From Microscilla marina ATCC 23134 (GTDB lineage Bacteria > Bacteroidota > Bacteroidia > Cytophagales > Microscillaceae), in the NCBI RefSeq assembly GCF_000169175.1, contig NZ_AAWS01000006.1, forward strand, positions 263,192-295,532: 32,341 nt of DNA. Reading direction: 5' to 3'. Each line of letters begins with the position of its first letter. Positions within the stretch are counted from its first letter, which is position 1. Position numbers and translations under genes: made by a program. Shown here piece by piece: positions 1 through 22,625 of the stretch. The notes beneath the pieces are model-generated. The model was given only the letters and a program-made list of their open reading frames with translations. It did no database searches and had not been told where the DNA came from.

Positions 1-17
1 CCAAGATATAAAGGTAG

Positions 18-46
18 CCCGAACCCAACAAGGTTCGGGTTTTTTT
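18..46 (+). terminator. Rho-independent terminator-like hairpin for a gene ending upstream of the window
   Basis: Stem cccgaacc (18-25) pairs with ggttcggg (32-39) around a 6-nt loop. It is followed directly by a T7 run (40-46). Confidence 0.5.
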
Positions 47-158
47 GTGCCTTTTTTTGCCAAATCCGCAAATAACACACCGCCGTGAACACCCGCAAGG
101 GGAAAGAAATAACACTAAATTCAAGTATTTCACACAATTTAAATAACACATAACAAAA

Positions 159-611
159 ATGTTTAGCCTATTTACCACCTCCAAAAAGGGGCAGCCTAGT
201 GTGGTGAAAAAGCCCAGTAAACCTAGGTTTGCTGCCAGATTAATAATTGTAAAACGACATGCCGACTGGTGTGCCGCAAGTAAGGTGATGACTCCGGTTT
301 TCAATGATTTGAAAAATCGTTTCGACGGTAGAGAAGTGTTGTTCGTGGACTTTAATTACACCAATAATACCTCCCGTTATCAGTCTGACCTTTTGGCTAC
401 TGCCCTCGGAGTTGACCGCAGTGTTAAAAAGCATGCGGGCACTGGGTTTATCTTGTTGATAGACGCCGAGACCAAGCAGGTAATCGAGAAATTTACTCGT
501 AGACAATCGTTCGAAGAAATGGTAAACTTAGTAAAAGACAGACTTTTAGAGAGTTTGGAGCGGGAAAAAATGATTGCCCAACTACAAAAAGAAGCTGGCA
601 AAGGCAAATAA
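159..611 (+). CDS. Thioredoxin-fold protein with a monothiol CxxS motif (WCAAS instead of WCGPC)
   Basis: ATG start, 150 aa. The segment IIVKRHADWCAASKVMTPVFNDL lines up with the thioredoxin active-site block (ADWCGPCK-MIAPIL pattern). The second Cys is replaced by Ser. A terminator follows. Confidence 0.55.
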   Translation: MFSLFTTSKKGQPSVVKKPSKPRFAARLIIVKRHADWCAASKVMTPVFNDLKNRFDGREVLFVDFNYTNNTSRYQSDLLATALGVDRSVKKHAGTGFILLIDAETKQVIEKFTRRQSFEEMVNLVKDRLLESLEREKMIAQLQKEAGKGK

Positions 612-642
612 CCTTTTGTGGTTTCGTTGGGCAACAGGTGTA

Positions 643-668
643 CACAACCCTGCATGGGGTTGTGGTTT
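643..668 (+). terminator. Rho-independent terminator of the 159-611 gene
   Basis: cacaaccc (643-650), loop tgcat, gggttgtg (656-663), followed by gtttt. Confidence 0.5.
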
Positions 669-1072
669 TCCCCAACAAACACCCCTTTAAAATTTAAACA
701 AATTTATTAGATGAAAACGTGTAGCGTCGAAACCCATTCGGCGAAAAAAGGACTTGATTGTCCAGGCTATGAATGGGTTTATTTATATCGTATAAATACG
801 ATATTTTAGATTTGTTTATTCACCTATCACAGGTGGAGCAAAAACCGCATAGGTACTTCATTAAAACCTGAGCAATAGGGTAATGCTCTGTTGCTCATAA
901 ACCTAAAATAACAATGACAAAATCAAAAATGATATTACGGAATGTTACTGTATTCAGTAGTAACAATTTTATACTCCTGAAGGAGTTTGGTTCTTTTCTT
1001 TATTCTAATACTTCATGAAGCTTTGAGCGACTTGACTATAGTTTGCCTGACAAATATAAATAGGGTAAGTTA

Positions 1073-2387
1073 TTGAAAAACAGTTGTTTAATACCTAAAA
1101 AAAACACTTGGTCGCTTGAAGCTTTGTCATTGAAAACTCTTATAGTGATGAGTTCTCGACTAAAAAAAGCGGACTTGACAAAGCCTCGCAAAACATTGGA
1201 GGCTTTGTTCCGCAAAAAGCTTAAACCAGAAAATTTAGAAGAAAATTCGCCTTATAAAGCCGTAGGGCAATTGATCCGTGGTGACTGGCAACGCACACGC
1301 CACGAGAAAAAAGCATTTTATCATTTTTTAGATAACATAGCCCGACGTAAGGGGTATGAGATTTACCGTGAAGCTGAGGCTTTGCTCGCCGTATTTGGTC
1401 AGGCAAGCCAATGGTTGCGTTTGCCCAAAGGCTGGATGCCTACCCAAACTGAAGATACCCAAACGGTATTTTCTGATTTGGTACATTACCTATTTGCACA
1501 GTATGAGGTACCCCAGTTTATGGACAATGCCTGGCACAAAGGCAATGTGGTACATATCGACTGGTTTATACATTTGGGCAAAGGGCAAAATATCAGGACT
1601 GCCCCTAATATGTATGCACATTTGACTAAAAAAATGGCGCATCATTTTTTGCAGGCACCCGCAGATTATACCATCGAAGAAGCCTTGACATACGGACAAG
1701 TAACTGCCTTAGGGGGCGATGATTTGTTGATTAAACAATTGCTGAACAGCCCATTGTTGGGTATATGCCAAGACCAAGGTTTTTGGTTGTCGCTATTACA
1801 ATTCTTCCTGAACAACAAAGAGCTGGCTCAAGATAACCACATAAAAAATATAGTGGAGTTTATCAACATCAAACGAATGACTGATGTGGTAGTAGATGAT
1901 TATGGACAACTTACAGGCAAAGTAGGCAGACCTTATTTGCTTAAGCAAAAAACGGCTGTTTCGATGATGCGAGAGGTAAGGGTTTGGCAACAAAAAATGG
2001 CGAATAGTTATAGCTATGACCAGCTCACTACTTGGGCACCTGTCAAGGTGAATAATTTCTTGAAAAAAGGCAATGGTATCACTTATCGCATTATGCAACT
2101 GACCAACAATTTTGCGCTCTTGCGTGAAGGCGAAAAAAATGAGACATTGTGTGGGCAGTTATATGCATCGATGCCAAATAGGTGATGTATCTATTTGGGC
2201 ATTGACCGCTACTTCGGGTTCTTCAGTAAAACCACTATTAACGATAGAACTCAAGCAGAACAATACCATTGCACAAGTAAGGGGAAAGGTAAACAGAATG
2301 CCTGACCTGGAAGAAGCTAAGTTGATAAAACAATGGGCTACCCGTGAACAACTTAAGGTAGCACAGCATTGTGAGATTAGTGATTAA
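1073..2387 (+). pseudogene. Frameshifted member of a paralogous hypothetical-protein family (paralog of 2640-4022). It is split into ORFs 1073-2185 and 2112-2387 by one extra base in an A7 run near 2129-2135.
   Basis: The two ORFs together align collinearly with the intact 460-aa paralog. Matching blocks include LVHYLFAQYEVPQFMDNAW vs LLQHLFVKYAMPEFMYPVW, WFIHLGKGQNI vs WFVHLGKGGSI, FLQAPADYTIEEALTYGQVTALGG vs FTQAPRHYSVEKALLYGQVGALGG, and the C-terminal MRHCVGSYMHRCQIGDVSIW vs MMHCVGTYTHKCMGGYSTIW. The 2112 frame is +1 relative to the 1073 frame. Deleting one A from gaaaaaaatg restores a single ~455-aa ORF. The track start at 1073 is TTG; the first in-frame ATG is at 1148. Confidence 0.6.
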
Positions 2388-2639
2388 TTAATTGTTTAAA
2401 TAACTGATAATGAGGATTATATTTAAATATTTAGCGATATGCGAAACCATATTTTAGATGGCTTAGAAGATAGCGATCCTCTTGCTGAGAAAGCTATTTT
2501 CTTTCCTCTCCCTTCCTGAAAAAGCCAAAGAAGTAAGCTTGTTTGGGTAGGGTAAGACGACCAATGCTATTGTAGCATACCTTCATAACAAAACAATTAC
2601 TTCTTGTATTGGGGTGGGTAAAATATACCTGCCCACAAT

Positions 2640-4022
2640 TTGGCAATCATGAATAGACGACACTGTTCAAAATCTCACCGCAAAAACCGTAAATCACTCA
2701 AGATAGAGAAGAAAAAGCGGTTTCATAAAAAGCAAAACAAAAAATATCTCAAAAAATTAGTGTGGTCGGCTTATGCCAACACCATCAATGGTTTGCACCA
2801 ACTTTATCATCAAGAAGTCAAGGCAGAAAATGCGTCTTTGTTGTTGCAAGGTATAGGAGATGTTTTACAGAATAACCAGCAGTTGGAGGGAGGAAAACGC
2901 ATCAAGTTTTTAAACTTCTTAAAACAAGTTTTACGACCTGAAACCCTCCCGCTTTTGTATGCTCCTACTGCCTTATACAACACCTTTCGCTTTCGCAAAT
3001 ACTGGCTCAATACTCTAGAGAGTTGGCAACCTGTCAAGCACTGGAACCCTACCCATAAAAGCGGGGGTTTTGAGGTGTATGAGGCAATGCTGAAAGATTT
3101 ATTACAACATTTGTTTGTGAAGTATGCGATGCCTGAGTTTATGTATCCAGTCTGGCAAGCCCAACATTCTACCCATTTATGGTGGTTTGTTCACTTGGGC
3201 AAAGGGGGCAGTATTAAAGATGTGCGTTCATTGCCTTTTAAGCTGAATAGTAAAATGGCGCATTATTTTACCCAAGCCCCCAGACACTACTCAGTAGAAA
3301 AAGCTTTGCTGTATGGGCAAGTAGGTGCACTAGGTGGCACTGAGGCTTTTTTTGAACAATGGTATGCTGCCCACTGGAAACGGATTTATAAAGACCCCCT
3401 GTTTTTTAGGCAAGTTATACAGTTTTTTGCCCGCTATCCTGAGCTCACCAATAACCGAGAAGTAGCACAGGTCATTAGTTTTATCAATGCTCACAAATAC
3501 GATGGACAAAAAATATACACCAGAGCTAAGGGCATTGTACATGAGCCACCTGTTGCCCCAAGTTTTAGCCTCAAGGGGAGGACTGACCAATCAATCATGC
3601 GATTGGTAGACGAGTGGTTGAGTTCGCCTAGAGTATTGAGTAGTGTGTTTGATGATTCGTTACTTACCTGGACTCCAGACCCTACCAGCGACTTTGAATA
3701 TTGGGATGCTGAAAAACAGGTATTGTACAAAATCTCGCAATTGATTAACAACTATGAGCTATGGCTAGAGGGCAAAGTTATGATGCATTGTGTAGGTACC
3801 TATACCCACAAATGCATGGGGGGCTATAGTACCATTTGGACAATGACCAAGGTAAATGCTCAGGGCAAAGAGGAGAAGTGTGTGACTATTGAGATGGGCA
3901 AAAAATGGAGAGTTTGCGAAATAAAGGGCAAGCGAAACCGTGAACCTAAGCCACAAGAGGTGGAAGTGGTAAAGCAATGGGTAAATAAAGAAAATCTGGC
4001 TTTGTCGATTGATTATTTATAG
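2640..4022 (+). CDS. Hypothetical protein, intact paralog of 1073-2387. It has a highly basic N-terminal tail and a C-terminal Cys/His cluster (HCVGxYxHxC...C...C). It may be PcfJ-like, unverified.
   Basis: 460-aa ORF. The TTG at 2640 is less likely than the ATG at 2649 (MNRRHCSKSHRKNRK...). Collinear similarity to the upstream frameshifted paralog. The N-terminal 40 aa are about 45% Lys/Arg/His. Confidence 0.7.
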   Translation: MAIMNRRHCSKSHRKNRKSLKIEKKKRFHKKQNKKYLKKLVWSAYANTINGLHQLYHQEVKAENASLLLQGIGDVLQNNQQLEGGKRIKFLNFLKQVLRPETLPLLYAPTALYNTFRFRKYWLNTLESWQPVKHWNPTHKSGGFEVYEAMLKDLLQHLFVKYAMPEFMYPVWQAQHSTHLWWFVHLGKGGSIKDVRSLPFKLNSKMAHYFTQAPRHYSVEKALLYGQVGALGGTEAFFEQWYAAHWKRIYKDPLFFRQVIQFFARYPELTNNREVAQVISFINAHKYDGQKIYTRAKGIVHEPPVAPSFSLKGRTDQSIMRLVDEWLSSPRVLSSVFDDSLLTWTPDPTSDFEYWDAEKQVLYKISQLINNYELWLEGKVMMHCVGTYTHKCMGGYSTIWTMTKVNAQGKEEKCVTIEMGKKWRVCEIKGKRNREPKPQEVEVVKQWVNKENLALSIDYL

Positions 4023-4442
4023 TAGTTAGTCATCACAGAGTTTAGTCATTTAACCATCCCCCCCTGTTTAACTCCGTTGAGAGATTACTGTATGTCGTCT
4101 TATTTGGGCAGTGGTGTATCAGGACACTGTTCTATTTGGTGTTTGTTAATAAGTACAATTACTCTAGGAGTAAATGATAGTACAAGCAAGAGGGATATAT
4201 AGCTATATGCTTGACCATAAAGAGACGGGTATGCTGAATGCTTGAGCAGATGCTCAAGGTTTGATTTATGATGTGTGTTGATACATTGTAAACCTAAAAA
4301 TCGTGTGTGAAATGTAAGCTTAAGAAAAGTAAGCTAATTTGGAACAGGTACGTGAGGTTTCGCGCTATCTATTTTTTTTGTGTAGAAAACTGAAGTAACT
4401 TTAATCATCAAATTTTTGAACTTATTATGAAATCTTAACATT

Positions 4443-5276
4443 ATGAATCCTACTGTATTAATTACAGGTGCGTCGAGTGGTATTGGAGCTGCTTTGGCGT
4501 ATGTTTTTGCTGCTAAAGGCTACAATACGGTGTTGGTGGCACGTCGCGAAGACAAGCTCAAGGCCATTGCCGAAGATATAGAACATCGGTTTGAAACCAA
4601 AGCATGGGTGAAACCACAAGACTTAAGTGTAGCAAATGCCGCCCAAACACTTTATGAGCAACTCATCGAGAAAGACATTCATATCAATGTATTGATAAAT
4701 AATGCAGGTTTGGGCAATATAGGTAAACTTGCTGAACAAACTACTGCCAATAGTTTTCAGATGTTACAAGTAAATGTGACGGCTTTGACTGAACTTACTC
4801 AAGTGTTTGTCAAAGATATGTTGGTACAAAAAGAACGAGACCTAGCCAATGGAGTAGCAGCGCATTACAAAATAATGAACATAGCTTCTTTGGCAGCGTT
4901 TCAGCCTGGCCCTAATATGGCGGTTTATTTTGCTTCTAAGGCTTATGTTTTATCATTTTCAGAAGCTATAGCCGAAGAGTTGAAAGAAGCTAACATAGGT
5001 GTTACTACTGTATGTCCTGGTATTACCCGCACCGATTTTTTGGAAAAAGCTCATTTGGCTAAAGAAAACCTTTATACCGAATGGGTAAGCCAAAGTGCCC
5101 AAGAAGTAGCTGAGGAAGCTTATAAAGCTTTATTTGATGGCAAAAGAGTGCATATTACCGGAGGAGTAGTTAATAGTATTTCAGCGAAAGCGGCAAGTAT
5201 AGTACCCAACCGTTACCTCAACCCTATTACGGGTTGGTTGATAGAAAACATAGGAGGAGGCAAAGATGTGTGGTGA
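4443..5276 (+). CDS. Short-chain dehydrogenase/reductase (SDR) family oxidoreductase
   Basis: N-terminal Rossmann motif LITGASSGIGAALA (TGxxxGIG). NNAG motif present. Catalytic YxxxK as YFASKAY. 277 aa is typical of classical SDRs. Confidence 0.9.
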   Translation: MNPTVLITGASSGIGAALAYVFAAKGYNTVLVARREDKLKAIAEDIEHRFETKAWVKPQDLSVANAAQTLYEQLIEKDIHINVLINNAGLGNIGKLAEQTTANSFQMLQVNVTALTELTQVFVKDMLVQKERDLANGVAAHYKIMNIASLAAFQPGPNMAVYFASKAYVLSFSEAIAEELKEANIGVTTVCPGITRTDFLEKAHLAKENLYTEWVSQSAQEVAEEAYKALFDGKRVHITGGVVNSISAKAASIVPNRYLNPITGWLIENIGGGKDVW

Positions 5277-5336
5277 TATATAAATAACACAATGGAGAAG
5301 TACTTGTGGCGTCTCTCCATTGTGTTTTATATTGGG

Positions 5337-5876
5337 TTATAAGAAAACCCTTAATCCTAATCCTAAGTTGATTACCCTAGAAACATTTTCTGACGAACTT
5401 ACAGAGTTGGTGTCTCTGGTATACTGGTAGTATAGTCCTGGTTCAAGCGCTACATTAGGTGCCAAGAAAAACGAGTAACCTACGCCTACTTGCCAGTTAA
5501 AATTACTTACCTCAGTATTGCTATCCTTCACATTGGTTTGTCCCCAGCCTACTCTTCCAGCAAGAAACAAATCCTTTACCACATAACCCCGTACCCCAGG
5601 CTGAAGGCTTACTGTGTTGGCTACATTGCTGAAGTTAAAGTCGGTATTAAGTGTAAGGGCAAAACCTGGGGTGATAAAATAACCTACCTGTGGTGATATG
5701 TTAAACACATTTTGTGTGCTTGAAGTAGTTACCCCATTGATAGTGTTTTCGAATGTTGCGTTTACGAAAGCAATATTGCCGCCCAACATCCACCTGCCTT
5801 TAGCATAATGGTTATTTTGTGCCTGTAGGTTGAGGGCAACAAATATGAGGACGACTAGTAAAGTTAACTTTTTCAT
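5337..5876 (-). CDS. Small outer-membrane beta-barrel protein (OmpA-like beta-barrel / porin family)
   Basis: Signal peptide MKKLTLLVVLIFVALNLQAQ. Alternating hydrophobic/aromatic beta-strand pattern. Gly/Asn/Tyr-rich. C-terminal aromatic-ended RVFL. 179 aa. Confidence 0.6.
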   Translation of the reverse strand: MKKLTLLVVLIFVALNLQAQNNHYAKGRWMLGGNIAFVNATFENTINGVTTSSTQNVFNISPQVGYFITPGFALTLNTDFNFSNVANTVSLQPGVRGYVVKDLFLAGRVGWGQTNVKDSNTEVSNFNWQVGVGYSFFLAPNVALEPGLYYQYTRDTNSVSSSENVSRVINLGLGLRVFL

Positions 5877-6039
5877 AAATAGTGTTGTGTTTAAGCTTTG
5901 AACAAGTTCATTGATAAAGCAACAAACTTACTTGTTTTTTGGGGTTTTCTCAAATACTATTTCTCAAACCATTTTTCACAAAAAATACACAGGTAGGTTT
6001 TAAAAACTTGTCAGACCTGGTTAGCATTTAGAAACCTCG

Positions 6040-6165
6040 ACAGGGGTAAGTCGCTAGATGCCGATGCATATCGGTGCTTTAAGCAACAAGCTGCAAGTCC
6101 TTAGATACCGATGATGGTGCCCCGCAAGCGGGATGTCGGTATAGCCTGCACCAGGAAAACCCTGT
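6040..6165. other. GC-rich (~55%) island with repeated AGATRCCGATG motifs and nested hairpins. Candidate small structured RNA or regulator-binding array.
   Basis: tagatgccgatg (6054-6065) and tagataccgatg (6103-6114) are direct repeats. gatgtcggtat (~6132-6142) is an inverted copy. Local hairpins are ccgat-gcat-atcgg and uaccgau...gucggua, the latter enclosing cccg-caag-cggg. This is a sharp compositional contrast with the AT-rich flanks. Confidence 0.3.
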
Positions 6166-6336
6166 TTAATTCCTCTTTGGCGTATTTACTATCTTGTGTT
6201 TGTAAGTTGTAGGCAGTAAGCGTGATTAATGTTAACAAGAATAATTTTTTCAGGGTGAATAAATATTTACTTTAATGAACCACTAAATGAGCAGGAATGT
6301 AGTATTTCTGAATGGCTCAACAAATGTTTTTTTCTT

Positions 6337-6795
6337 ATGTCAAATAATATTGTAATACAATCTTCTAATGGTACTAAAATAGGCGAACTTGTACTTAAAA
6401 ACTATTACCAGCCCACGTGGTCACCGTCTAAGGCTGACTTTTTTTTGGTCTATTACAACCTTGATCTTCATGGCGAAAAAAAGACTAACAACCGATACTT
6501 CACCAATAAGTATGTGATCAACGAAAAGTACCTGGCACTTCAAGAGTTTGTTGTCAAGGCAAGTGAAAAAGATTTGGATAATCAAAATACGCAATTGGTT
6601 GTGATAGATTTAGAACATAAACAGCAAAGTATAATATCCAGGATAGAACATGGGTATGTTACGCCAGTAGAGTTTACCACTAACGCTATTTTATATACAA
6701 AAAGCAAGGTAGGACAAGGTAGCCTACACAGCCATTTTGAAGCAACCCTAGCAGACATAAAAAACTGGGAGCCTATTGGCCTGACTAATAAATGA
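6337..6795 (+). CDS. Hypothetical protein (152 aa, no recognisable domain)
   Basis: ATG-initiated ORF with coding-like composition. It overlaps the 3' end of the convergent LRR gene by 11 bp. Confidence 0.45.
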   Translation: MSNNIVIQSSNGTKIGELVLKNYYQPTWSPSKADFFLVYYNLDLHGEKKTNNRYFTNKYVINEKYLALQEFVVKASEKDLDNQNTQLVVIDLEHKQQSIISRIEHGYVTPVEFTTNAILYTKSKVGQGSLHSHFEATLADIKNWEPIGLTNK

Positions 6796-8251
6796 TAGTA
6801 TGAGGCAAGGCTAATTTTAAACGTTCTATTTCTTGAGCTTTTATAGGATTTCCTGCAAGCAGTAAAGTGTGCAAGCGTGGAAAATCTCCTTGCGTTACAG
6901 GAAGAGATTTGAGTTGGTTGTTTTCCAGTATCAGTGTTTCTAAATAATGAAGCTGACCAATGTTGGCGGGCAATGAGCTTAGTTGATTGTATCCCAAATG
7001 CAAAAAACGAAGCTTTTTTAGATTGTTGATAGTTTCCGGAATTTTGAGTAACCTATTTCCTTCAAAATTAGCTTCCTGCAACTGCTCCAGTGCCCCTATG
7101 CTATCAGGCAGGTCTACCAACTGGTTATAACTCAAATCTATACTCTTTAATTTTTTAAGGTAAATCAGGCTTTTGGGTAAAACGCTGATGTGGTCGTGCT
7201 TAATAGCGAGTTGTTGTAGTTGAATAAAATCTCCTATCCATTCAGGCAATGCTTGCCACTGTGTGTGTTGTATAACGAGCGTTTCTAACCAAGGTACTTT
7301 AGAGATTTGCAGAGCCATTTGGTGAATGTTCCCCCCTCCCGTTTTCAATGCTTTCAGGTTTTTTAGTTGACTAAAACCTTCTGGTAAATATTGAATTGGA
7401 TTATTGATCAGGTCAAGCTCTTGTAAGTGAGTCAACCGAGATAGGGACGCTGGCAGAGAAGTAAGTTGATTATCAGCTAAATATAATGCATTAAGCTGTA
7501 GCATATCTCCCAAGTGGGCAGGCAAACTTTGGAGTAGGTTATGGTTCAAGTGTAACTCTTCAATTTGCCCAAGTTTTGTGATGGCAACGGGTAAACTTTT
7601 TAGGCGATTGTAAGACAAATACAAGGCTTTGAGTTGAGTAAGCTTTCCTATACTTTCGGGGAGTTTGAAGAGTACATTACGGCTTGCCACAAGTTTTTGC
7701 AAAGAGGTAAGTGAACCTAACTGACTAGGCAAAGTGCTTAAATTTAGGTCTGATATAGTGAGCAGGGTTACCTGCAAACGCTGTAATACCTGCCATTGCC
7801 TAATCAACAGTTGTAGTTCCCGTTTATGTACAAGGGTCAGGCTAGCTAATGTAAGGTTTTGTGCCACAGCAAGCCAATCTAATTTATGCTCCAGGCAAAA
7901 CAACAAGGCTGTTTTTACCTTACAGTAAGGGTTATGAGTCAGTAGCATTTTCAATAGTTCCACTCCGTCAACCTCTGGGTATTTTATAAGCCTTTTGAAT
8001 ATGCGAAAAACTTGTTTGGGATCTAAAGTACTGTACAACGATTCTTGACTAAATTTTTGATTTGCCAGCTTGTCAAAAAATAGCCTGGCTTTGTTTTGAA
8101 TGGTAGCATCCTCGTGAAAATAACTCAAAAACAATAAAGTAGAGGTGAGCTCAGGTGCAGGCGAATAGGCAGGTAATAGCTCAAAACCTAGCAGAATATT
8201 AGCACTTTCGCTACTTTGTAACAACTTCTTTAAGTTACCTATGGCAGTCAT
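6785..8251 (-). CDS. Leucine-rich repeat (LRR) protein, cytoplasmic, with a unique ~170-aa N-terminal domain
   Basis: About 13 consecutive 23-aa LRRs of the LxxLxxLxLxxNxLxxLPxxIgx type (e.g. LTQLKALYLSYNRLKSLPVAITKL). No signal peptide. Confidence 0.85.
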   Translation of the reverse strand: MTAIGNLKKLLQSSESANILLGFELLPAYSPAPELTSTLLFLSYFHEDATIQNKARLFFDKLANQKFSQESLYSTLDPKQVFRIFKRLIKYPEVDGVELLKMLLTHNPYCKVKTALLFCLEHKLDWLAVAQNLTLASLTLVHKRELQLLIRQWQVLQRLQVTLLTISDLNLSTLPSQLGSLTSLQKLVASRNVLFKLPESIGKLTQLKALYLSYNRLKSLPVAITKLGQIEELHLNHNLLQSLPAHLGDMLQLNALYLADNQLTSLPASLSRLTHLQELDLINNPIQYLPEGFSQLKNLKALKTGGGNIHQMALQISKVPWLETLVIQHTQWQALPEWIGDFIQLQQLAIKHDHISVLPKSLIYLKKLKSIDLSYNQLVDLPDSIGALEQLQEANFEGNRLLKIPETINNLKKLRFLHLGYNQLSSLPANIGQLHYLETLILENNQLKSLPVTQGDFPRLHTLLLAGNPIKAQEIERLKLALPHTIIY

Positions 8252-8282: not shown

Positions 8283-10184
8283 CTAAAAAGATACTTGTGT
8301 TTGGGGCAACCAATCAGTGATTCGTTGTTTTTCGTGTGTTGGAATAGGGTTTTTATCCAATAATAAAAAACGCAACCCCCGCAGTTTCTGTATAGTCTGG
8401 GGCAGTTTAGTAAGCTGGTTGTTTTTTAGGTTGAGCGCATACAAACTGCGCATATTACCTATGCTTTTAGGCAATTGGGTAAGTTGATTTCCTTCAAGGT
8501 TCAAATGAACTACTTTACTTAATTGCCCTATACTTTCAGGCAATTGGGTAAGTTGATTTCCTTCAAGGTTCAAATGAACTACTTTACTTAATTGCCCTAT
8601 ACTTTCAGGCAAAGCAGTTAATGCGTTATAGTTCAATGACAGTAAAAATAATTTTTTCAAGTCATATATGATTTTGGGCAATTCAGTTAGCTTATTACCA
8701 TCCACACTTAATTGATGTAAATTTTTAAGTTTGCCCAGTGACTTAGGTAATACTTGTAATTGATTGTAACTCAGGTTGAGCAAGCTAAGTCGGTGAAGGT
8801 TACCTATCCCTGGTGGTAGGTGAGTAAGTTTATTACCATCCACACTTAATTGATGTAAATTTTTAAGTTTGCCCAGTGACTTAGGTAATACTTGTAGTTG
8901 ATTGTAACTCAGGTTGAGCAAGCTAAGTTGCTGAAGGTTACTTAGCTTTGGTGGTAGGTGAGTAAGCTTATTATAGGTCAGTTTTAGCTGAGTTAATGTT
9001 AATATTTGAGTAACCTGTTGGGGGAGACATGACAATTGATTTTGTTCAAGGTTTAACTCGCGTAGCTCGCTTAGTTTACCTATAGTGGCAGGCAAAGCGT
9101 CCAGTTGGTTGCGGGCAACCGACAATACCATCAGTTGAGCAAGATTGCCTATGCTGTCAGGTAGTTTTTTCAAGTGATTGTTGCTTAAACTCAAGTGGGA
9201 AAGCTTACGCAGATTGCCTATACTTTCTGGCAAATGTTTTAATTGATTTTTCTGAAGTTTTAAATATACCAGTGACGATAACTTGGTGATTACAGCTGGG
9301 AATTTTTCTATTCGGTTATTGTCGAGTGCCAGTTTTCCTATTTGCTTTAGTTGCTGCATAGACTCAGGTAGTTGTTGTATACGACAAGACGAAAGGGTAA
9401 GGTTTTGTAAATTGCTCAAGGTTCCCATTGTTTCAGGCAATGCCTTGATCCGATCTGATTTGAGAGTAAACGTCACAAGTTTTGAAAGTTTGCCTATATT
9501 GACAGGTACACAATGAAACTTATTACCACTTAGGTTGAGTGATTTTAGAGTGGTAAGGTGGGTTATTGCCAAAGGAAACTCTGTCAGTTGATTATTGTTT
9601 AGGTTGAGTTCCTGTAGGTGGGTTAATTGGTTTATTTCAGTAGGTATTTCAGTCAAACGGTTGCTTTGCAAGCACAGAGTTTGGATTTTTGGGATTTGAA
9701 ATACCAACGGAGGTAGTTTTTCCAATCCAAACTCCAACAAGTTGAGCGTAGAAGATGACAACACTGGATGCTTAAGGTTTTGTATGTCAATGAGATTATG
9801 CTTCAAACCAAACCTATAGCCTCGGTTAATGTGTGCTATGGCAATAGACACAATCTCTTTGGCATTTACTAAAGGCGATTTACAAAACTGATTTAAAAAG
9901 TCAGATACGTCATGTTCACCCGAATAATGTTGGTAATGCAGCTTTTTAGTAAAGCGCGTAAACCCTAAAGAAGCATGTTCAGCAAACACTGTTTTCATTA
10001 TTTCCTTTACTACGTTGTTTCGATGAAATAGCGATAAAACATAAATATAGCCCAACATAGACAAGGGTACCCCATTACCAGCCATAATTTGAACTGCCTG
10101 CCCTATGTTTGTCAGATCGTTGCTGTTAATCAATTGCTTGAGCTTTTTTGTATATATGCTTTTGTCCAAAGTTCCATCCATCAT
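8283..10184 (-). CDS. Leucine-rich repeat (LRR) protein with about 20 repeats, internal perfect duplications, and a unique ~180-aa N-terminal domain
   Basis: 633 aa. 23-aa LRRs throughout. The exact 23-aa unit LTQLPESIGQLSKVVHLNLEGNQ occurs twice. The 46-aa unit LQVLPKSLGKLKNLHQLSVDGNKLTHLPPGIGNLHRLSLLNLSYNQ occurs twice. No signal peptide. Confidence 0.85.
   Translation of the reverse strand: MMDGTLDKSIYTKKLKQLINSNDLTNIGQAVQIMAGNGVPLSMLGYIYVLSLFHRNNVVKEIMKTVFAEHASLGFTRFTKKLHYQHYSGEHDVSDFLNQFCKSPLVNAKEIVSIAIAHINRGYRFGLKHNLIDIQNLKHPVLSSSTLNLLEFGLEKLPPLVFQIPKIQTLCLQSNRLTEIPTEINQLTHLQELNLNNNQLTEFPLAITHLTTLKSLNLSGNKFHCVPVNIGKLSKLVTFTLKSDRIKALPETMGTLSNLQNLTLSSCRIQQLPESMQQLKQIGKLALDNNRIEKFPAVITKLSSLVYLKLQKNQLKHLPESIGNLRKLSHLSLSNNHLKKLPDSIGNLAQLMVLSVARNQLDALPATIGKLSELRELNLEQNQLSCLPQQVTQILTLTQLKLTYNKLTHLPPKLSNLQQLSLLNLSYNQLQVLPKSLGKLKNLHQLSVDGNKLTHLPPGIGNLHRLSLLNLSYNQLQVLPKSLGKLKNLHQLSVDGNKLTELPKIIYDLKKLFLLSLNYNALTALPESIGQLSKVVHLNLEGNQLTQLPESIGQLSKVVHLNLEGNQLTQLPKSIGNMRSLYALNLKNNQLTKLPQTIQKLRGLRFLLLDKNPIPTHEKQRITDWLPQTQVSF
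8470..8607. repeat. Perfect tandem duplication, 2 x 69 bp, inside the LRR gene
   Basis: ggcaattgggtaagttgatttccttcaaggttcaaatgaactactttacttaattgccctatactttcag is repeated head-to-tail. 69 bp equals one 23-aa LRR. Confidence 0.9.
8693..8968. repeat. Near-perfect tandem duplication, 2 x 138 bp (~94% identity), inside the LRR gene
   Basis: tattaccatccacacttaattgatgtaaatttttaagtttgcccagtgacttaggtaatacttgta... recurs with an offset of exactly 138 bp. 138 bp equals two LRR units. Confidence 0.85.
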
Positions 10185-14253: not shown

Positions 14254-14291
14254 TTACCTTAGCACTGACTTAATACTAAGGTAACTTTTTT
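14254..14291 (+). terminator. Plus-oriented terminator-like hairpin with no annotated plus-strand gene upstream
   Basis: ttaccttag (14254-14262) and ctaaggtaa (14276-14284) form a 9-bp stem with a 13-nt loop. A T6 run (14286-14291) follows. The element abuts the Uma2 stop codon, but it is in the wrong orientation to terminate that minus-strand gene. Confidence 0.3.
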
Positions 14292-14859
14292 AAAACTTCA
14301 CCTTCCTATAAATATCTTTAACCGTTAGATGGAGGTTCAATTGTACAAGTGTGATGGTATCTTCAGGTTGTTGATAGGTGGTATATTTCCAAAAACCTTC
14401 TTGTCGTTCGTATACTTCTACAAAATACTTGTATTGATCGATGAGTATATAATAACGCAAAGAAGGTATGCGCATATAAGTATTTTGCTTTTGGTCTTTG
14501 TCATATTGCCGGGTAGACTTAGACAAAACCTCTACCACCAAAGAGGGGGATGTGATCTTGTGATCTTGCCCATCTTCTAAGTCTTTTGGGGCACAGGTAT
14601 ACACTACATCTGGGTATACATAATGGGTATTAGCTAATATTTCTACTTTGATGTCGCCAGTGAAAACATCGCAGTCATCAGAAATTAAGTTGTCGATAAG
14701 GTGATGAGTATTATTGGCAATACGGTTATGATTGATTGTACCGCCTGACATGGCAAATACTTCTCCATGATAGTACTCATAACGTGTACCGTCGGTTTGC
14801 TCCAAATCAAGGTACTCTGGGTAAGAATAATGTGTTTGTTTAGGTTTTGCTTGTCCCAT
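14290..14859 (-). CDS. Uma2-family (DUF820) PD-(D/E)xK endonuclease-like protein
   Basis: N-terminal YSYPEYLDLEQTDGTRYEYYHGEV and the internal SPSLVVEVLSKST...D...Q block are hallmark Uma2 motifs. 189 aa. There is a paralog at the 3' edge of the window. Confidence 0.8.
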   Translation of the reverse strand: MGQAKPKQTHYSYPEYLDLEQTDGTRYEYYHGEVFAMSGGTINHNRIANNTHHLIDNLISDDCDVFTGDIKVEILANTHYVYPDVVYTCAPKDLEDGQDHKITSPSLVVEVLSKSTRQYDKDQKQNTYMRIPSLRYYILIDQYKYFVEVYERQEGFWKYTTYQQPEDTITLVQLNLHLTVKDIYRKVKF

Positions 14860-18907: not shown

Positions 18908-21103
18908 ATGGCGAAGAAGTTTCCTTCCTACATACAGTTAGACATGATGGATTGTGGTCCTTCATGTGTAAAAATCATTTCAGAACATTACGGCAAACGT
19001 TATTCGCTGCAATACCTCCGCGAACAAAGCTATATTACCCGCGAGGGGGTTTCTCTTTTGGGGATAAGCGATGCTGCTGAAGCAGTAGGCTTTCGTACCA
19101 TTGGGGTAAAAACCACTTTTGAACAATTAGCTGATGAGGCTCCGTTACCTTTTATTGCCCACTGGAACCAGCAACACTTTATAGTAGTACACAAAATTAC
19201 CAAAAAAAAGGTGCACGTGTCTGACCCCGCAGTAGGTTTGGTGACTTACGACCGTGAGCAGTTTATGAAACACTGGGCGAGCACCCGTGAGCAAGGCGAA
19301 GACAAAGGCGTGGCATTGTTGATGGAGCCAACCCCTGAATTTTTTCAGCGGGAAAGTGACGAAAAGCTGAAGAAAACCAGTTGGAAGTTTTTGCTGGGAT
19401 ATGTGTTGCGTTATAAAAAGTTTTTGGTACAACTATTTTTAGGGTTGTTGCTGGGGAGTTTGCTTAGTATGATTTTCCCCTTCCTTACCCAATCGGTAGT
19501 AGATATTGGAATTAACACTCGCGATCTCAACTTTATTTATATTGTATTGCTGGGGCAGTTTATGCTCTTTTTTAGCCAAACTGCAGTAGACTTTATAAGG
19601 CGATGGATTTTACTCCACCTCAGTACCCGGATTAACATATCGCTCATTTCTGATTTTTTGATCAAACTTATGAAGTTGCCCATTGGTTTTTTTGACACCA
19701 AAATGATTGGCGACCTTTTGCAGCGGATCAATGATCACCACCGGATTGAACGGTTTTTAAGTACCTCAACCCTTACTATCCTATTTTCTTTTTTTAACCT
19801 GATCGTTTTCGGGTTTGTGCTTGCGTATTACAATCTGTATATTTTTCTTATCTTTTTGATAGGCAGCGTTTTATATATTGGCTGGGTGTTGGCATTTTTG
19901 AATATACGTAAAAAGCTTGACTATAAGCGTTTTCAGGAAATGTCACGTAATCAAAGTAGCTTGATTCACCTTATCAATGGCATGCAAGAGATTAAGCTAA
20001 ATAATTGCGAAAAGCAAAAGAGGTGGGAATGGGAGCGTATCCAGGCAAAGATGTTTAAGATCAACGTAAAGAGCGTAACTCTGGAGCAAACCCAGCAGGC
20101 AGGTAGCTTATTTATCAATCAAAGTAAAAATATCTTGATTACTTTTTTTGCGGCTTATGCGGTGGTCAATGGAACAATGACCCTGGGGATGATGCTTGCT
20201 GTGCAGTCAATTATTGGACAACTAGACGGCCCTATTACCCAAATGATAAGTTTTGTGTATGAAATGCAAGACGCCAAGATAAGCTTGGAGCGTTTGGGCG
20301 AAATACATGAAAAAGAAGAGGAAGAAAGCAGCGAAGGAGATCAGGTAACTATATTACCTGAGGGCAAAAATCTTCATTTAGAGAACATTACTTTTCAGTA
20401 TGAAGGTCCCCACTCTCCTAAAGTTATAGATGGAGTGACTTTGACTATTCCTGAGGGTAAAATTACAGCCATTGTAGGTACCAGTGGTAGTGGTAAAACA
20501 ACCTTGCTTAAGCTATTGCTAAAGTTTTATCCTGTGACTGAAGGTGAAATAAAACTGGAAGGTGTTCAACTCAATAACCTGAGTGGGCGTTTGTGGCGCG
20601 AACGCTGTGGAACAGTCATGCAAGACGGCTTTATTTTTTCTGATACCATTGCCCGCAATATTGCGGTAAGTGACGAAATCATAGATCAACAAAGGTTGCG
20701 TCACGCGGTGCAAGTAGCCAATATCCAAGAGTTTGTAGAAGACCTGCCACTAGGGTATAATACCAAGATAGGGCAAGATGGTATAGGTGTAAGTGGAGGA
20801 CAAAAACAACGAGTTTTGATTGCCCGTGCGGTATACAAAAACCCTGAGTTTTTATTCTTTGACGAAGCTACTTCAGCGCTGGACGCCAATAATGAACGCA
20901 TTATTATGGAAAACCTGGACGAGTTTTTTAAAGGCAAAACTGCCGTAGTAATTGCTCACCGTTTGAGCACCGTAAAAAATGCTGACCAAATCATTGTACT
21001 CGAAAAAGGAAAACTGGTGGAACAAGGCACTCACAAAGAGTTGACGGCTAAAAGAGGCATCTACTATAACCTGGTAAAGAACCAGTTGGAATTAGGTGGG
21101 TAA
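18908..21103 (+). CDS. Peptidase C39 domain-containing ABC transporter (bacteriocin / double-glycine leader peptide processing exporter)
   Basis: N-terminal C39 papain-like domain with catalytic Cys in MMDCGPSCV and downstream His (HFIVVH). 6-TM ABC transmembrane domain. NBD with Walker A GTSGSGKTTL, signature VSGGQKQRV, Walker B LFFDEATSALD and H-loop AHRLST. 731 aa. Confidence 0.9.
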   Translation: MAKKFPSYIQLDMMDCGPSCVKIISEHYGKRYSLQYLREQSYITREGVSLLGISDAAEAVGFRTIGVKTTFEQLADEAPLPFIAHWNQQHFIVVHKITKKKVHVSDPAVGLVTYDREQFMKHWASTREQGEDKGVALLMEPTPEFFQRESDEKLKKTSWKFLLGYVLRYKKFLVQLFLGLLLGSLLSMIFPFLTQSVVDIGINTRDLNFIYIVLLGQFMLFFSQTAVDFIRRWILLHLSTRINISLISDFLIKLMKLPIGFFDTKMIGDLLQRINDHHRIERFLSTSTLTILFSFFNLIVFGFVLAYYNLYIFLIFLIGSVLYIGWVLAFLNIRKKLDYKRFQEMSRNQSSLIHLINGMQEIKLNNCEKQKRWEWERIQAKMFKINVKSVTLEQTQQAGSLFINQSKNILITFFAAYAVVNGTMTLGMMLAVQSIIGQLDGPITQMISFVYEMQDAKISLERLGEIHEKEEEESSEGDQVTILPEGKNLHLENITFQYEGPHSPKVIDGVTLTIPEGKITAIVGTSGSGKTTLLKLLLKFYPVTEGEIKLEGVQLNNLSGRLWRERCGTVMQDGFIFSDTIARNIAVSDEIIDQQRLRHAVQVANIQEFVEDLPLGYNTKIGQDGIGVSGGQKQRVLIARAVYKNPEFLFFDEATSALDANNERIIMENLDEFFKGKTAVVIAHRLSTVKNADQIIVLEKGKLVEQGTHKELTAKRGIYYNLVKNQLELGG

Positions 21104-21209: not shown

Positions 21210-22625
21210 CTAAAACTGATCAAACAATTTTGCGAATTGATTAAAAATACGCTCAATCAGACGGAGGTCTTTGGTGATAATATCGGCTTGTCCTTGCATT
21301 TCTGCCTTGAACTCCAGGTCTTTTTTATAACTCGTCTTCAACCCGTTGGGCAGGCTTACATTGATCGTGTACATAGATCCTTTTTGTGGGTCAGCACTTG
21401 CTTGTGCTATCAACGATATGCGTTCTACTTTCCCCTCTACCATGCCAAACTCATCGGCGGGGTAGTTGGCAAAACGAATGTTTACCACTTGTCCCACTTT
21501 TACTTTACCCGACCCGTTTACTGGCATATTAATCTTGCCAATCAAGTTCTTGTTTTGTGGAATTACCGCCATGACCGTTTGTTCAGGCTTTACAAACTGA
21601 TTATCGCTCCAATAAGACAAAAATGAGACCTTGCCTTCCACAGGAGTAGTGAGTATGTAGCGTTGTATCCAGATGTTTACCTGGCTGCGTAAGGTTTGGA
21701 AAGCGTTGTTAGTGGCAAGTAAATAGGTTCTTTCCTGTTCGCGAAAAGTAAGGGTAAGTTCTCCAATGTTGTTTTGTAATTCATTAATCCTAATTCGGTT
21801 ATTAATGATACTGGCCTCTCCATTTTTCAAGGCCCTGCGTTGTTGCAACAAACTGGCTTTAGTTTTGTCAAATTCAAGCCTTGCCATTAGTTTTTCTTCG
21901 GCAAGGGTGGAGTCTGCTTTGTATTGATTATTGAATATTTTGAATTCTTTGCCTAAAATCCTTTGTTGAGAAAGTAGGTTTTGGTTGAGCTTCTTGTATT
22001 GGATAATCTGCGATTGCAGGTTTTGAATTTGGTTTTCAGGTTTCGACAACTCATAAAAAAGCAATAACTCTCTAAAAGTTTTAGCAAACGATTCGTAGGC
22101 TCCTTGCAACTCGCCCAGCTTAAGGTTTTGTTGACTTATTACTTTGTCAAAAGCCAGTAAATCTTGGGTGCCTCTTTGGCGGTTGTTTAATATTTTTTGA
22201 AATTGAGTAATTTGTTTTTTCAATACTTGATAGTCTTCAAAAACTGTGGGGTTTTGAATATATCCCAACACCTCTTGAGGCTTTACATTTTGCCCATCTT
22301 TTACCATCAACTTTAATGCTCCCGAACTACGCGCCAAAATGCGTTGGGGAGGGGTTTTGGTAGTAACCATAATGCTGGAGTGAATAATATCGGGATATTT
22401 CATAAACCATGATACTGTCAGCAATACCATAAAAGTGAAAAATACTATAGTAATGCCCCAGCGAATAATCCAATGAGGAATATAGCTGAGAATCTCTTGT
22501 ACTTCATCACTTCTTAACTCTAAGTCGGGGATCTCTTCTGCTTTTTGGGTAGGTGTATGAGTAGAAACTATAGTGCCTGTAGGTGTACTATGGGTATTGT
22601 TTGGTGTCTCTTGTGCTTCTGGCAT
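21210..22625 (-). CDS. HlyD-family secretion (membrane fusion) protein
   Basis: N-terminal cytoplasmic tail. Single TM (WIIRWGITIVFFTFMVLLTVSWF). Long coiled-coil region. C-terminal beta-barrel/lipoyl-like segment (VEGKVSFL...GKVKVGQVVNIRFANYP). 471 aa. Confidence 0.85.
   Translation of the reverse strand: MPEAQETPNNTHSTPTGTIVSTHTPTQKAEEIPDLELRSDEVQEILSYIPHWIIRWGITIVFFTFMVLLTVSWFMKYPDIIHSSIMVTTKTPPQRILARSSGALKLMVKDGQNVKPQEVLGYIQNPTVFEDYQVLKKQITQFQKILNNRQRGTQDLLAFDKVISQQNLKLGELQGAYESFAKTFRELLLFYELSKPENQIQNLQSQIIQYKKLNQNLLSQQRILGKEFKIFNNQYKADSTLAEEKLMARLEFDKTKASLLQQRRALKNGEASIINNRIRINELQNNIGELTLTFREQERTYLLATNNAFQTLRSQVNIWIQRYILTTPVEGKVSFLSYWSDNQFVKPEQTVMAVIPQNKNLIGKINMPVNGSGKVKVGQVVNIRFANYPADEFGMVEGKVERISLIAQASADPQKGSMYTINVSLPNGLKTSYKKDLEFKAEMQGQADIITKDLRLIERIFNQFAKLFDQF

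Follow-up and report, generated by a model that had tools for sequence, protein, structure and literature searches.

Two neighbouring genes in a 32,341-nucleotide stretch of the Microscilla marina ATCC 23134 genome (contig NZ_AAWS01000006.1, positions 263,192 to 295,532 of the forward strand; this whole 32-kb stretch is called the window below) encode new members of the catalogued PcfJ-domain family of unknown function, and they do not constitute a new family. We are highly confident that these genes, named here copy 1 and copy 2, are paralogues B and C of an ancient tandem array A-B-C-D of four PcfJ-domain proteins, in which C is intact, B has one adenine too many, A has been deleted and D is left as a relic. 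The explanation that we favour overall joins this identity to a mechanism of action centred on a bound metal, and we regard it as probable on balance. The locus adds the evolutionary history of the array, candidates for a redox partner and an RNA leader, and a clearer view of the conserved site of the domain. Residue numbers follow copy 2 throughout.

History of the tandem array

The original prediction, made from the letters of the window, described a same-strand pair of collinear paralogues, and this description is fully borne out. Once the reading frame of copy 1 is restored (412 amino acids), the two proteins share 30% identity and 51% positives over 409 aligned residues (E 4e-66). All the motifs quoted for them are present in the sequence, namely the central blocks WFVHLGKG / WFIHLGKG and YGQVGALGG / YGQVTALGG and the C-terminal motif, which reads MMHCVGTYTHKC then SIW and MRHCVGSYMHRC then TIW in the two copies. 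Other parts of the description apply to copy 2 only. A length of about 455 residues fits copy 2 (457) and not copy 1, which is frameshifted and measures 412 residues when mended. Extreme richness in Lys, Arg and His is found in the first 36 residues of copy 2 (13 Lys, 5 Arg and 3 His, or 21 basic residues, against 1 acidic), and the N-terminal tail of copy 1 is moderate (7 Lys and 3 Arg against 5 acidic residues). An exact-sequence look-up of the window protein returned no record. The features of the locus that are needed for its history are the following:

1148-2387, plus strand: copy 1 (paralogue B), 412 amino acids after deletion of one A of an A7 run
2133-2139, plus strand: the A7 homopolymer, which causes a +1 frameshift in copy 1
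2649-4022, plus strand: copy 2 (paralogue C), intact, 457 amino acids, ATG at 2649 and stop at 4022
802-888: deletion scar of paralogue A; positions 4684-6217 (A448) of the related locus L001 have no counterpart in the window (blastn)
4086-4275, plus strand: relic of paralogue D, its C-terminal ~75 codons, frameshifted, with the motif YCMSSYLGSGVSGHCSIW versus HCVSSYLNSCVAGRCSIW
4384-4459: deletion scar of a phytase-like gene; L001 11046-12514 has no counterpart in the window (blastn)
159-611, plus strand: thioredoxin-like gene, 150 amino acids, with WCAAS as a CxxS motif (Pfam Thioredoxin, E 2.2e-5)

Copy 1 begins with the ATG at 1148 and is split over two frames, which appear as the mechanically called open reading frames (ORFs) 1073-2185 and 2112-2387. 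The start of copy 2 is the ATG at 2649, matching the starts of its orthologues, and not the TTG at 2640. The two copies are separated by 261 nucleotides.

Four related loci permit reconstructing what happened in the window: L001, a 231-kb metagenome contig with the same flanks; L005, a relative that is 94% identical; and L007 and L008, which are from more distant Microscillaceae. In L001 a thioredoxin-like gene upstream, and a short-chain dehydrogenase gene and an outer-membrane barrel gene downstream, enclose four tandem family genes (A, B, C and D, coding for 448, 414, 458 and 431 amino acids) together with a phytase-like gene (379 amino acids). Four tandem copies are present in L001-L003, L007 and L008. 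In a neighbour-joining tree the genes form four orthology groups, each of them with genes of L001, L007 and L008; copy 1 belongs to group B and copy 2 to group C. The duplications are therefore older than these lineages, and the 30% identity between the two copies fits such an age. A recent duplication as the origin of the arrays was considered and rejected, as the tree argues against it.

The alignment of the window to L001 by blastn locates the losses. Window positions 1-802 correspond to L001 3877-4684 and positions 888-4027 to L001 6217-9381, with paralogue A missing between them. Further downstream, L001 9381-10843, which holds most of paralogue D, is lost and window positions 4027-4177 stand in its place; positions 4177-4384 then correspond to L001 10843-11046, up to the scar of the phytase-like gene. 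A tblastn search with D431 of L001 recovered the relic as two pieces in two frames (joint E 6e-8), with a motif that is degraded yet recognisable as HCVxSY...C...SIW. L005 shares the layout of the window, with two copies and the D relic. This history bears on the spacers, for which about 450 and 420 bp had been given and which had been called unusually long: the spacer 3' of copy 2 does measure 420 nucleotides (4023-4442), the one 5' of copy 1 measures 536 (612-1147), and much of their length can now be put down to the scars left by deletions, to the remains of a gene and to a conserved structured element. The D relic accounts for much of the downstream one.

Both remaining copies are under purifying selection, the ratio of nonsynonymous to synonymous substitution rates (dN/dS) against L005 being 0.147 for copy 1, 0.119 for copy 2 and 0.17 for the thioredoxin-like neighbour. 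Copy 1 is 80% identical to the intact B414 of L001, and its orthologue in L005 is intact as well; at the site of the frameshift, L005 and L001 have A6, which is read through in frame, and the window has A7. The extra A thus arose very recently by mutation, or else it is a sequencing error in the homopolymer. Consequently, the birth-and-death pattern that had been proposed for the pair, with one copy decaying, is half right: birth and death are real, since A and D were lost, but the decay of copy 1 hangs on one homopolymer base in a gene with a dN/dS of 0.147. It might also be imagined that slippage on the A-run, by the ribosome or during transcription, yields the complete copy 1 protein, A7 being a slippery sequence and the downstream frame being intact and conserved. 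We find such a programmed frameshift very improbable. The orthologues with A6 need no shift, and therefore the ancestral state was a plain ORF; moreover, efficient transcriptional slippage takes longer runs than A7, and a sequencing error or a very recent mutation is simpler.

Membership of the PcfJ-domain family

A PcfJ-like assignment had been offered as a weak guess, and it was confirmed by a hidden Markov model search of Pfam, in which PF14284 (PcfJ-like; gathering score 25) matched copy 2 with 42.8 bits (E 6e-11) and the downstream ORF of copy 1 with 40.0 bits (E 4.3e-10). In both copies the match spans only positions 66-144, approximately, of the 147 in the profile; in copy 1 the PcfJ domain comprises the last ~115 residues. 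The nearest database protein to copy 2, 93% identical, is named by NCBI 'PcfJ domain-containing protein [uncultured Microscilla sp.]'. Thus, the opinion that the proteins belong to an unplaced family did not survive, because the family is catalogued and its full-length architecture is common. An exhaustive profile search returned 6,972 cluster representatives (50% identity) at E<=1e-3, 3,406 at E<=1e-10 and 1,214 at E<=1e-30, and most of the top 150 representatives span from profile position ~108 or earlier to ~453. Matches in genomes come from Microscillaceae, many Poribacteria, Planctomycetota, other Bacteroidota, Proteobacteria and Latescibacterota.

The other half of that opinion, that the family is functionally uncharacterised, stands. 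No functional study was found in the literature on PcfJ, PF14284 and SF0329, neither copy matches NCBIfam, neither matches a defence protein of PADLOC-DB 2.0 at E<=1, and searches of solved structures gave no relative. Matches in PHROGs are limited to phage families of unknown function, on the same C-terminal stretch. A database search with a profile of the C-terminal domain, aimed at domain fusions, gave short fragments only.

The comparison with the archetype, PcfJ of the Enterococcus faecalis plasmid pCF10 (447 amino acids), shows how far the relationship extends. It has a similar overall size and, like the window proteins, a C-terminal domain of ~110 residues with EG, HCV, Y, TxE and GKxNR; in contrast to them, it has His at position 389, where the window proteins have Cys. 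The alignment by hhalign (probability 95%, E 4e-8) covers the C-terminal ~106 columns only and the N-terminal ~300 residues do not align at this sensitivity, so that membership of PF14284 is at the domain level only and homology over the whole protein was not found. Moreover, pcfJ of pCF10 is plasmid-borne and translationally coupled to an AcrIIA9/PcfK-family gene, whereas the window genes are chromosomal members of a paralogue array that comes after a thioredoxin-like gene. PcfK is the domain found in the AcrIIA9 family (PMC6739104). On two Enterococcus plasmid loci (L067, which is pCF10, at 5874-7984, and L070 at 1361-3399) pcfJ overlaps the end of a gene annotated as one of the Cas9 inhibitor AcrIIA9 family, near DpnD/PcfM, and this arrangement has the appearance of a conserved operon within a region for anti-defence or establishment.

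Upstream of the PcfJ domain, a central module of ~230-280 residues (WFIHxGxGxNIR, KKMAHxF, GQVxxLGG) is conserved and has no Pfam model; this helical module, which makes up the ~300 residues ahead of the domain, is common to more than 1,000 clusters at 50% identity in several bacterial phyla and to a huge phage. Full-length relatives (for example P0002, P0008-P0156, the Poribacteria genes and a 454-amino-acid ORF of the phage) resemble the window proteins in having the two-domain architecture over ~340 residues, often a basic N-terminus, and the motifs WFIHxGxGxNIR, KKMAHxF, GQVxxLGG, EGxxMxHCVxSYxxxC, TIE and RGKxNR. They differ in being usually single-copy, in carrying in some cases an N-terminal SF0329 domain, and in having no thioredoxin-like partner outside Cytophagales. 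The SF0329-family domain (PF25753 / NF049912, function unknown) is seen on the longer members P0019, P0023, P0026, P0037, P0053, P0063, P0093 and P0099. In P0016 two family units are fused, and the first one has no PcfJ domain.

Phages supply further relatives. The uncultured phage LR756511.1, of 595 kb, encodes the 454-amino-acid full-length homologue (L068 5656-7020) with all motifs and a basic N-terminus; directly upstream of it lies a small Cys/His-rich ORF that is, by eye, putatively HNH-like. A Foldseek search of BFVD found 36 mostly PcfJ-like phage proteins at E < 0.005, nearly all with a probability at or near 1. Large phage proteins (PHROGs 3169, 7484 and 8470; gp160 of YerA41) share the C-terminal PcfJ-like domain with the window proteins, and they have other, often much longer, N-terminal regions (up to 1,403 amino acids) and no assigned function. 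The gp160 protein of Yersinia phage YerA41 (L066 2471-4390; 639 amino acids, PcfJ domain at the C-terminus) is annotated as structural, and if this annotation reflects virion content, the PcfJ domain could be delivered together with the phage DNA.

The PcfJ domain and its possible function

The AlphaFold2 model of copy 2, built with a 114-sequence alignment, is of high confidence (predicted local distance difference test, pLDDT, 93.8; predicted template modelling score, pTM, 0.82). It consists of an N-terminal basic helix (residues 8-53, 46 residues long), an all-alpha domain (~60-285) and the alpha/beta PcfJ domain (~286-457). The fold is predicted with confidence and has no solved relative; a PDB search with sequence profiles gave nothing below E 0.2. 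The conserved residues concentrate in one part of the gene:

3768-3941, plus strand: conserved PcfJ core of copy 2, with Glu374, Gly375, His380, Cys381, Val382, Tyr385, Cys389, Thr413, Glu415, Asn430 and Arg431

Across the 114 sequences Gly186, Cys381, Tyr385, Cys389 and Trp444 are invariant; nearly so are Thr413 (113/114), Glu374, His205 and Asn430 (112/114 each), Gly375 and Arg311 (111/114 each), and His380 and Glu415 (109/114 each). The InterPro description of PF14284, which we take to name two fully conserved residues, C and G, agrees with Cys381, found in 114/114 sequences, and with Gly375; both are kept in seven distant members that were aligned separately (the two window copies, the huge phage, pCF10, pK72-1-B, S. 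equinus and YerA41). Glu-Gly, His-Cys-Val, Tyr, Thr-x-Glu and Asn are invariant among these seven. Position 389 is Cys in four of them (the window copies, the huge phage and YerA41) and His in the other three (pCF10, pK72-1-B and S. equinus), which are Firmicute plasmid proteins. Interchange of Cys and His is the usual signature of a metal ligand, and its occurrence at 389, beside the invariant His-Cys, is easier to reconcile with a metal ligand than with a disulfide or a nucleophile acting alone. The C-terminal Cys/His cluster had been read by the original prediction as a metal-binding module; its part formed by His380, Cys381 and Cys389 is conserved among homologues, and the remainder is not, His387 being present in 27/114 sequences, Cys411 in 18/114, and Cys423 lying outside the conserved columns. 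A classic four-ligand zinc finger was for this reason rejected, as only His380, Cys381 and Cys/His389 are conserved among the Cys/His candidates. Three ligand-type residues accompanied by carboxylates resemble a catalytic site more than a four-Cys/His finger, and Glu415, Glu374 or His205 could provide a fourth ligand.

From this pattern a mechanism can be sketched. Each protein would be stand-alone, cytoplasmic, strongly basic and built of two domains. The PcfJ domain would hold a mononuclear metal site, most likely of Zn, formed by His380, Cys381 and Cys/His389 and acting as the functional centre, with Glu415 and/or Glu374 close to it and the invariant Tyr385 and the RGKxNR loop beside it. 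The helical domain and the Lys/Arg-rich N-terminal helix would recognise the target, most plausibly nucleic acid: the isoelectric points of the two copies are 9.7 and 9.5 and the median net charge of the family core is +12, and it is because of these values that we think of nucleic acid as the probable target. This division of labour, with a metal-centred PcfJ domain as functional core and the helical module plus the basic helix for target recognition, is proposed tentatively, as a possible arrangement read from conservation patterns. The persistence of four old paralogues under purifying selection suggests four specificities, and the array would then embody specialisation and not redundancy. 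The thioredoxin-like gene lies 260-340 nucleotides upstream of the first family gene (536 in L005) in 7 loci of 5 lineages, and it is present in every Cytophagales locus for which upstream DNA is available, including L025 and L047, whose outer flanks are different; its product may keep the thiols reduced.

Several observations weigh against this proposal. The conserved ligand-type residues number only three; two of these, His380 and Cys381, are immediate neighbours in the chain, an uncommon arrangement for ligands of the same ion, and His380 is replaced by Asn in 5/114 sequences. Neither a zinc-finger nor a metalloenzyme fold came up in structure searches. The basic tail is not family-wide, the net charge of the first 40 residues having a median of +5 and a range from -3 to +17. 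As for partners, the thioredoxin-like gene is restricted to Cytophagales and its Pfam score is barely above the threshold (24.8 bits against a cut-off of 23.5), and no neighbour family was common across phyla among 72 flanking proteins of 19 diverse loci.

Two other functions have to be weighed against the metal-centred one. The proteins might be non-enzymatic binders, acting as inhibitors or adaptors in conflicts between the cell and mobile elements, in which case the His and Cys residues would only staple the fold and the array would represent several binding specificities, like arrays of immunity genes. The company kept by the domain elsewhere speaks for such a role: in pCF10 and pK72-1-B pcfJ is directly downstream of, and overlaps, the AcrIIA9-family (PcfK-domain) gene near DpnD/PcfM; on IncI2 plasmids it follows hha-topB and adjoins the relaxase region (PMC13431907); on pLG2 it adjoins ssb (PMC3084688); a PcfJ-like domain is part of the target gene of a diversity-generating retroelement (PMC5758913); and the YerA41 protein is annotated as a virion component. 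Moreover, tandem diverged paralogues are typical of conflict genes. Nevertheless, the window and most chromosomal loci are without mobile-element or defence neighbours, no PADLOC match was obtained, and in Poribacteria the gene occurs in single copy and in conserved synteny. Strict invariance of the polar residues over very long evolutionary distances and a low omega of ~0.1 both suit an active site better than an interface that is evolving. We consider the binder role rather unlikely. Still less probable, in our opinion, is that the PcfJ domain is a truncated GNAT-like transferase without a metal site, in which Cys381 would serve as nucleophile or acyl carrier and RGKxNR would bind the phosphate of a nucleotide or of coenzyme A (CoA). 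Weak matches to GNAT/MYST acetyltransferases do recur in three libraries, with Foldseek probabilities of 0.63-0.66 for Esa1 and 0.41 for SSAT in the PDB and of 0.93 for an acetyltransferase in BFVD. The GNAT fold has the order beta1-alpha1-alpha2-beta2-beta3-beta4-alpha3, and the order predicted here, beta(358-365)-alpha-alpha-beta-beta-beta-alpha(435-447), equals its first two thirds, with RGKxNR at the place of motif A. However, copy 2 ends ~10 residues after the helix 435-447, so the domain stops before beta5-alpha4-beta6, which completes the acetyl-CoA site of GNAT enzymes, and half of the cofactor site is missing; the loop reads RGKxNRxP instead of the Q/RxxGxG/A of motif A. The alternation of Cys and His at 389 fits a ligand better than single-thiol chemistry, and a His-Cys-Cys/His triad is non-canonical for GNAT. 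Furthermore, no Pfam acetyltransferase matched even at E<=1, and the structural and sequence matches to GNAT are not significant, so that the resemblance is a lead only.

A bolder scheme can be drawn that combines elements of these explanations with the metal-centred mechanism, and we offer it as a long shot, a little more doubtful than the transferase itself. The PcfJ domain would be an unrecognised metal-dependent effector enzyme, possibly derived from GNAT, which plasmids and phages would deploy on entry, in the one case as operon partner of the anti-CRISPR AcrIIA9/PcfK and in the other as a virion protein. Its full-length chromosomal relatives would be a cellular nucleic-acid-modifying or defence module, represented here by a four-paralogue array in which each paralogue would have a specificity of its own, coupled to the gene of a monothiol thioredoxin-like protein and headed by a structured RNA leader.

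The window locus is an ordinary member of a catalogued family; by itself it changes little. The PcfJ family is nevertheless a real gap in knowledge, with members numbering in the thousands, on chromosomes in several phyla as well as in phages and on conjugative plasmids, and its invariant polar set looks like an active or metal site. Since the archetype is co-transcribed with a gene of an anti-CRISPR family, the role of the domain could reveal a new step in the establishment of mobile DNA. We think that the Microscillaceae array is a useful natural experiment, which brings together four old paralogues, lineages that lack two of them, and candidates for an RNA leader and a redox partner.

Genomic surroundings and a structured non-coding element

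The spacer that follows the thioredoxin-like gene is as conserved as coding sequence: its identity to L001 is 75-80%, versus ~54% for shuffled sequences, and synonymous sites are saturated. It contains the following feature:

733-805, plus strand: three-helix non-coding element, with helices P1 (733-740/770-777), P2 (750-753/760-763) and P3 (784-792/797-805)

In five Microscillaceae sequences, which represent only two or three independent lineages, 97% of the cells are paired and 6/21 pairs show compensatory changes. The covariation score was reached by 0/500 shuffles, slid controls were 30-40% paired, and the G-U pairs fit the plus strand. The nested P1/P2 plus P3 structure was preferred over the RNAalifold consensus because it has more compensatory pairs. 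A covariance model found exactly one copy of the element per Microscilla-type locus and no further copies in the loci. No match was found in Rfam; pattern scans of metagenomes gave 0 matches with a strict pattern and 49 chance matches with a looser one, none of them confirmed by the covariance model. These data are suggestive of a conserved structured RNA, without proving it. It may serve the array as a 5' leader or form the 3' end of the transcript of the thioredoxin-like gene; a small RNA and a terminator are further options.

As for the wider surroundings, the neighbours in the window are ordinary chromosomal genes, among them those for leucine-rich-repeat proteins, a sulfate permease, glycosyltransferases, an extracytoplasmic function (ECF) sigma factor, a proline dehydrogenase and a C39-peptidase ATP-binding cassette (ABC) exporter. 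They give little reason for regarding the pair as cargo of a conjugative element or prophage. In favour of such an origin are the name of the family, taken from pCF10, the occurrence of the domain in many phages and, with 580 PLSDB records, on plasmids of Firmicutes, and the full-length homologue in the 595-kb phage. Against it, a Pfam scan of the ORFs of the window (up to ~26 kb) found no integrase, transposase, relaxase, PcfK-like or transfer gene, and the whole window contains no tRNA. Between flanks of a housekeeping type that the loci have in common, the locus is collinear with L005 at 94% identity and syntenic with L001, L007 and L008, and the G+C content is flat (0.38-0.44 across the region). 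A tblastn search with copy 2 against 72,556 plasmids gave no match, and the mobile context with a PcfK/AcrIIA9 partner, a feature of the archetype that is outside the Pfam definition, is absent from the window. We judge mobile cargo to be a very poor candidate. The window locus probably represents a stable cellular gene pair, considering that mobile-element genes were not found and that a family gene is syntenic, in single copy, in about 25 Poribacteria genomes. The neighbours in Poribacteria (lectin-like, ABC transporter, DNA methylase and PIN) look like lineage synteny and not like a functional link. DNA methylase (N6_N4_Mtase) genes and a gene for a PIN-domain protein were seen near family genes in some loci (L010 11344-14166; L001 1144-2112; L021 13118-13513), too sporadically for an association.

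Finally, a few genes of the window, farther from the pair, deserve mention. Two large leucine-rich-repeat proteins, of 488 and 633 amino acids, are encoded next to each other on the minus strand (6785-8251 and 8283-10184), and a putative restriction endonuclease gene of the Uma2 family (PF05685, E 3e-33) lies at 14290-14859, also on the minus strand. The C39-peptidase ABC exporter (18908-21103, plus strand) is followed by a gene for an HlyD-type protein (21210-22625, minus strand), a pair typical of bacteriocin or peptide export.

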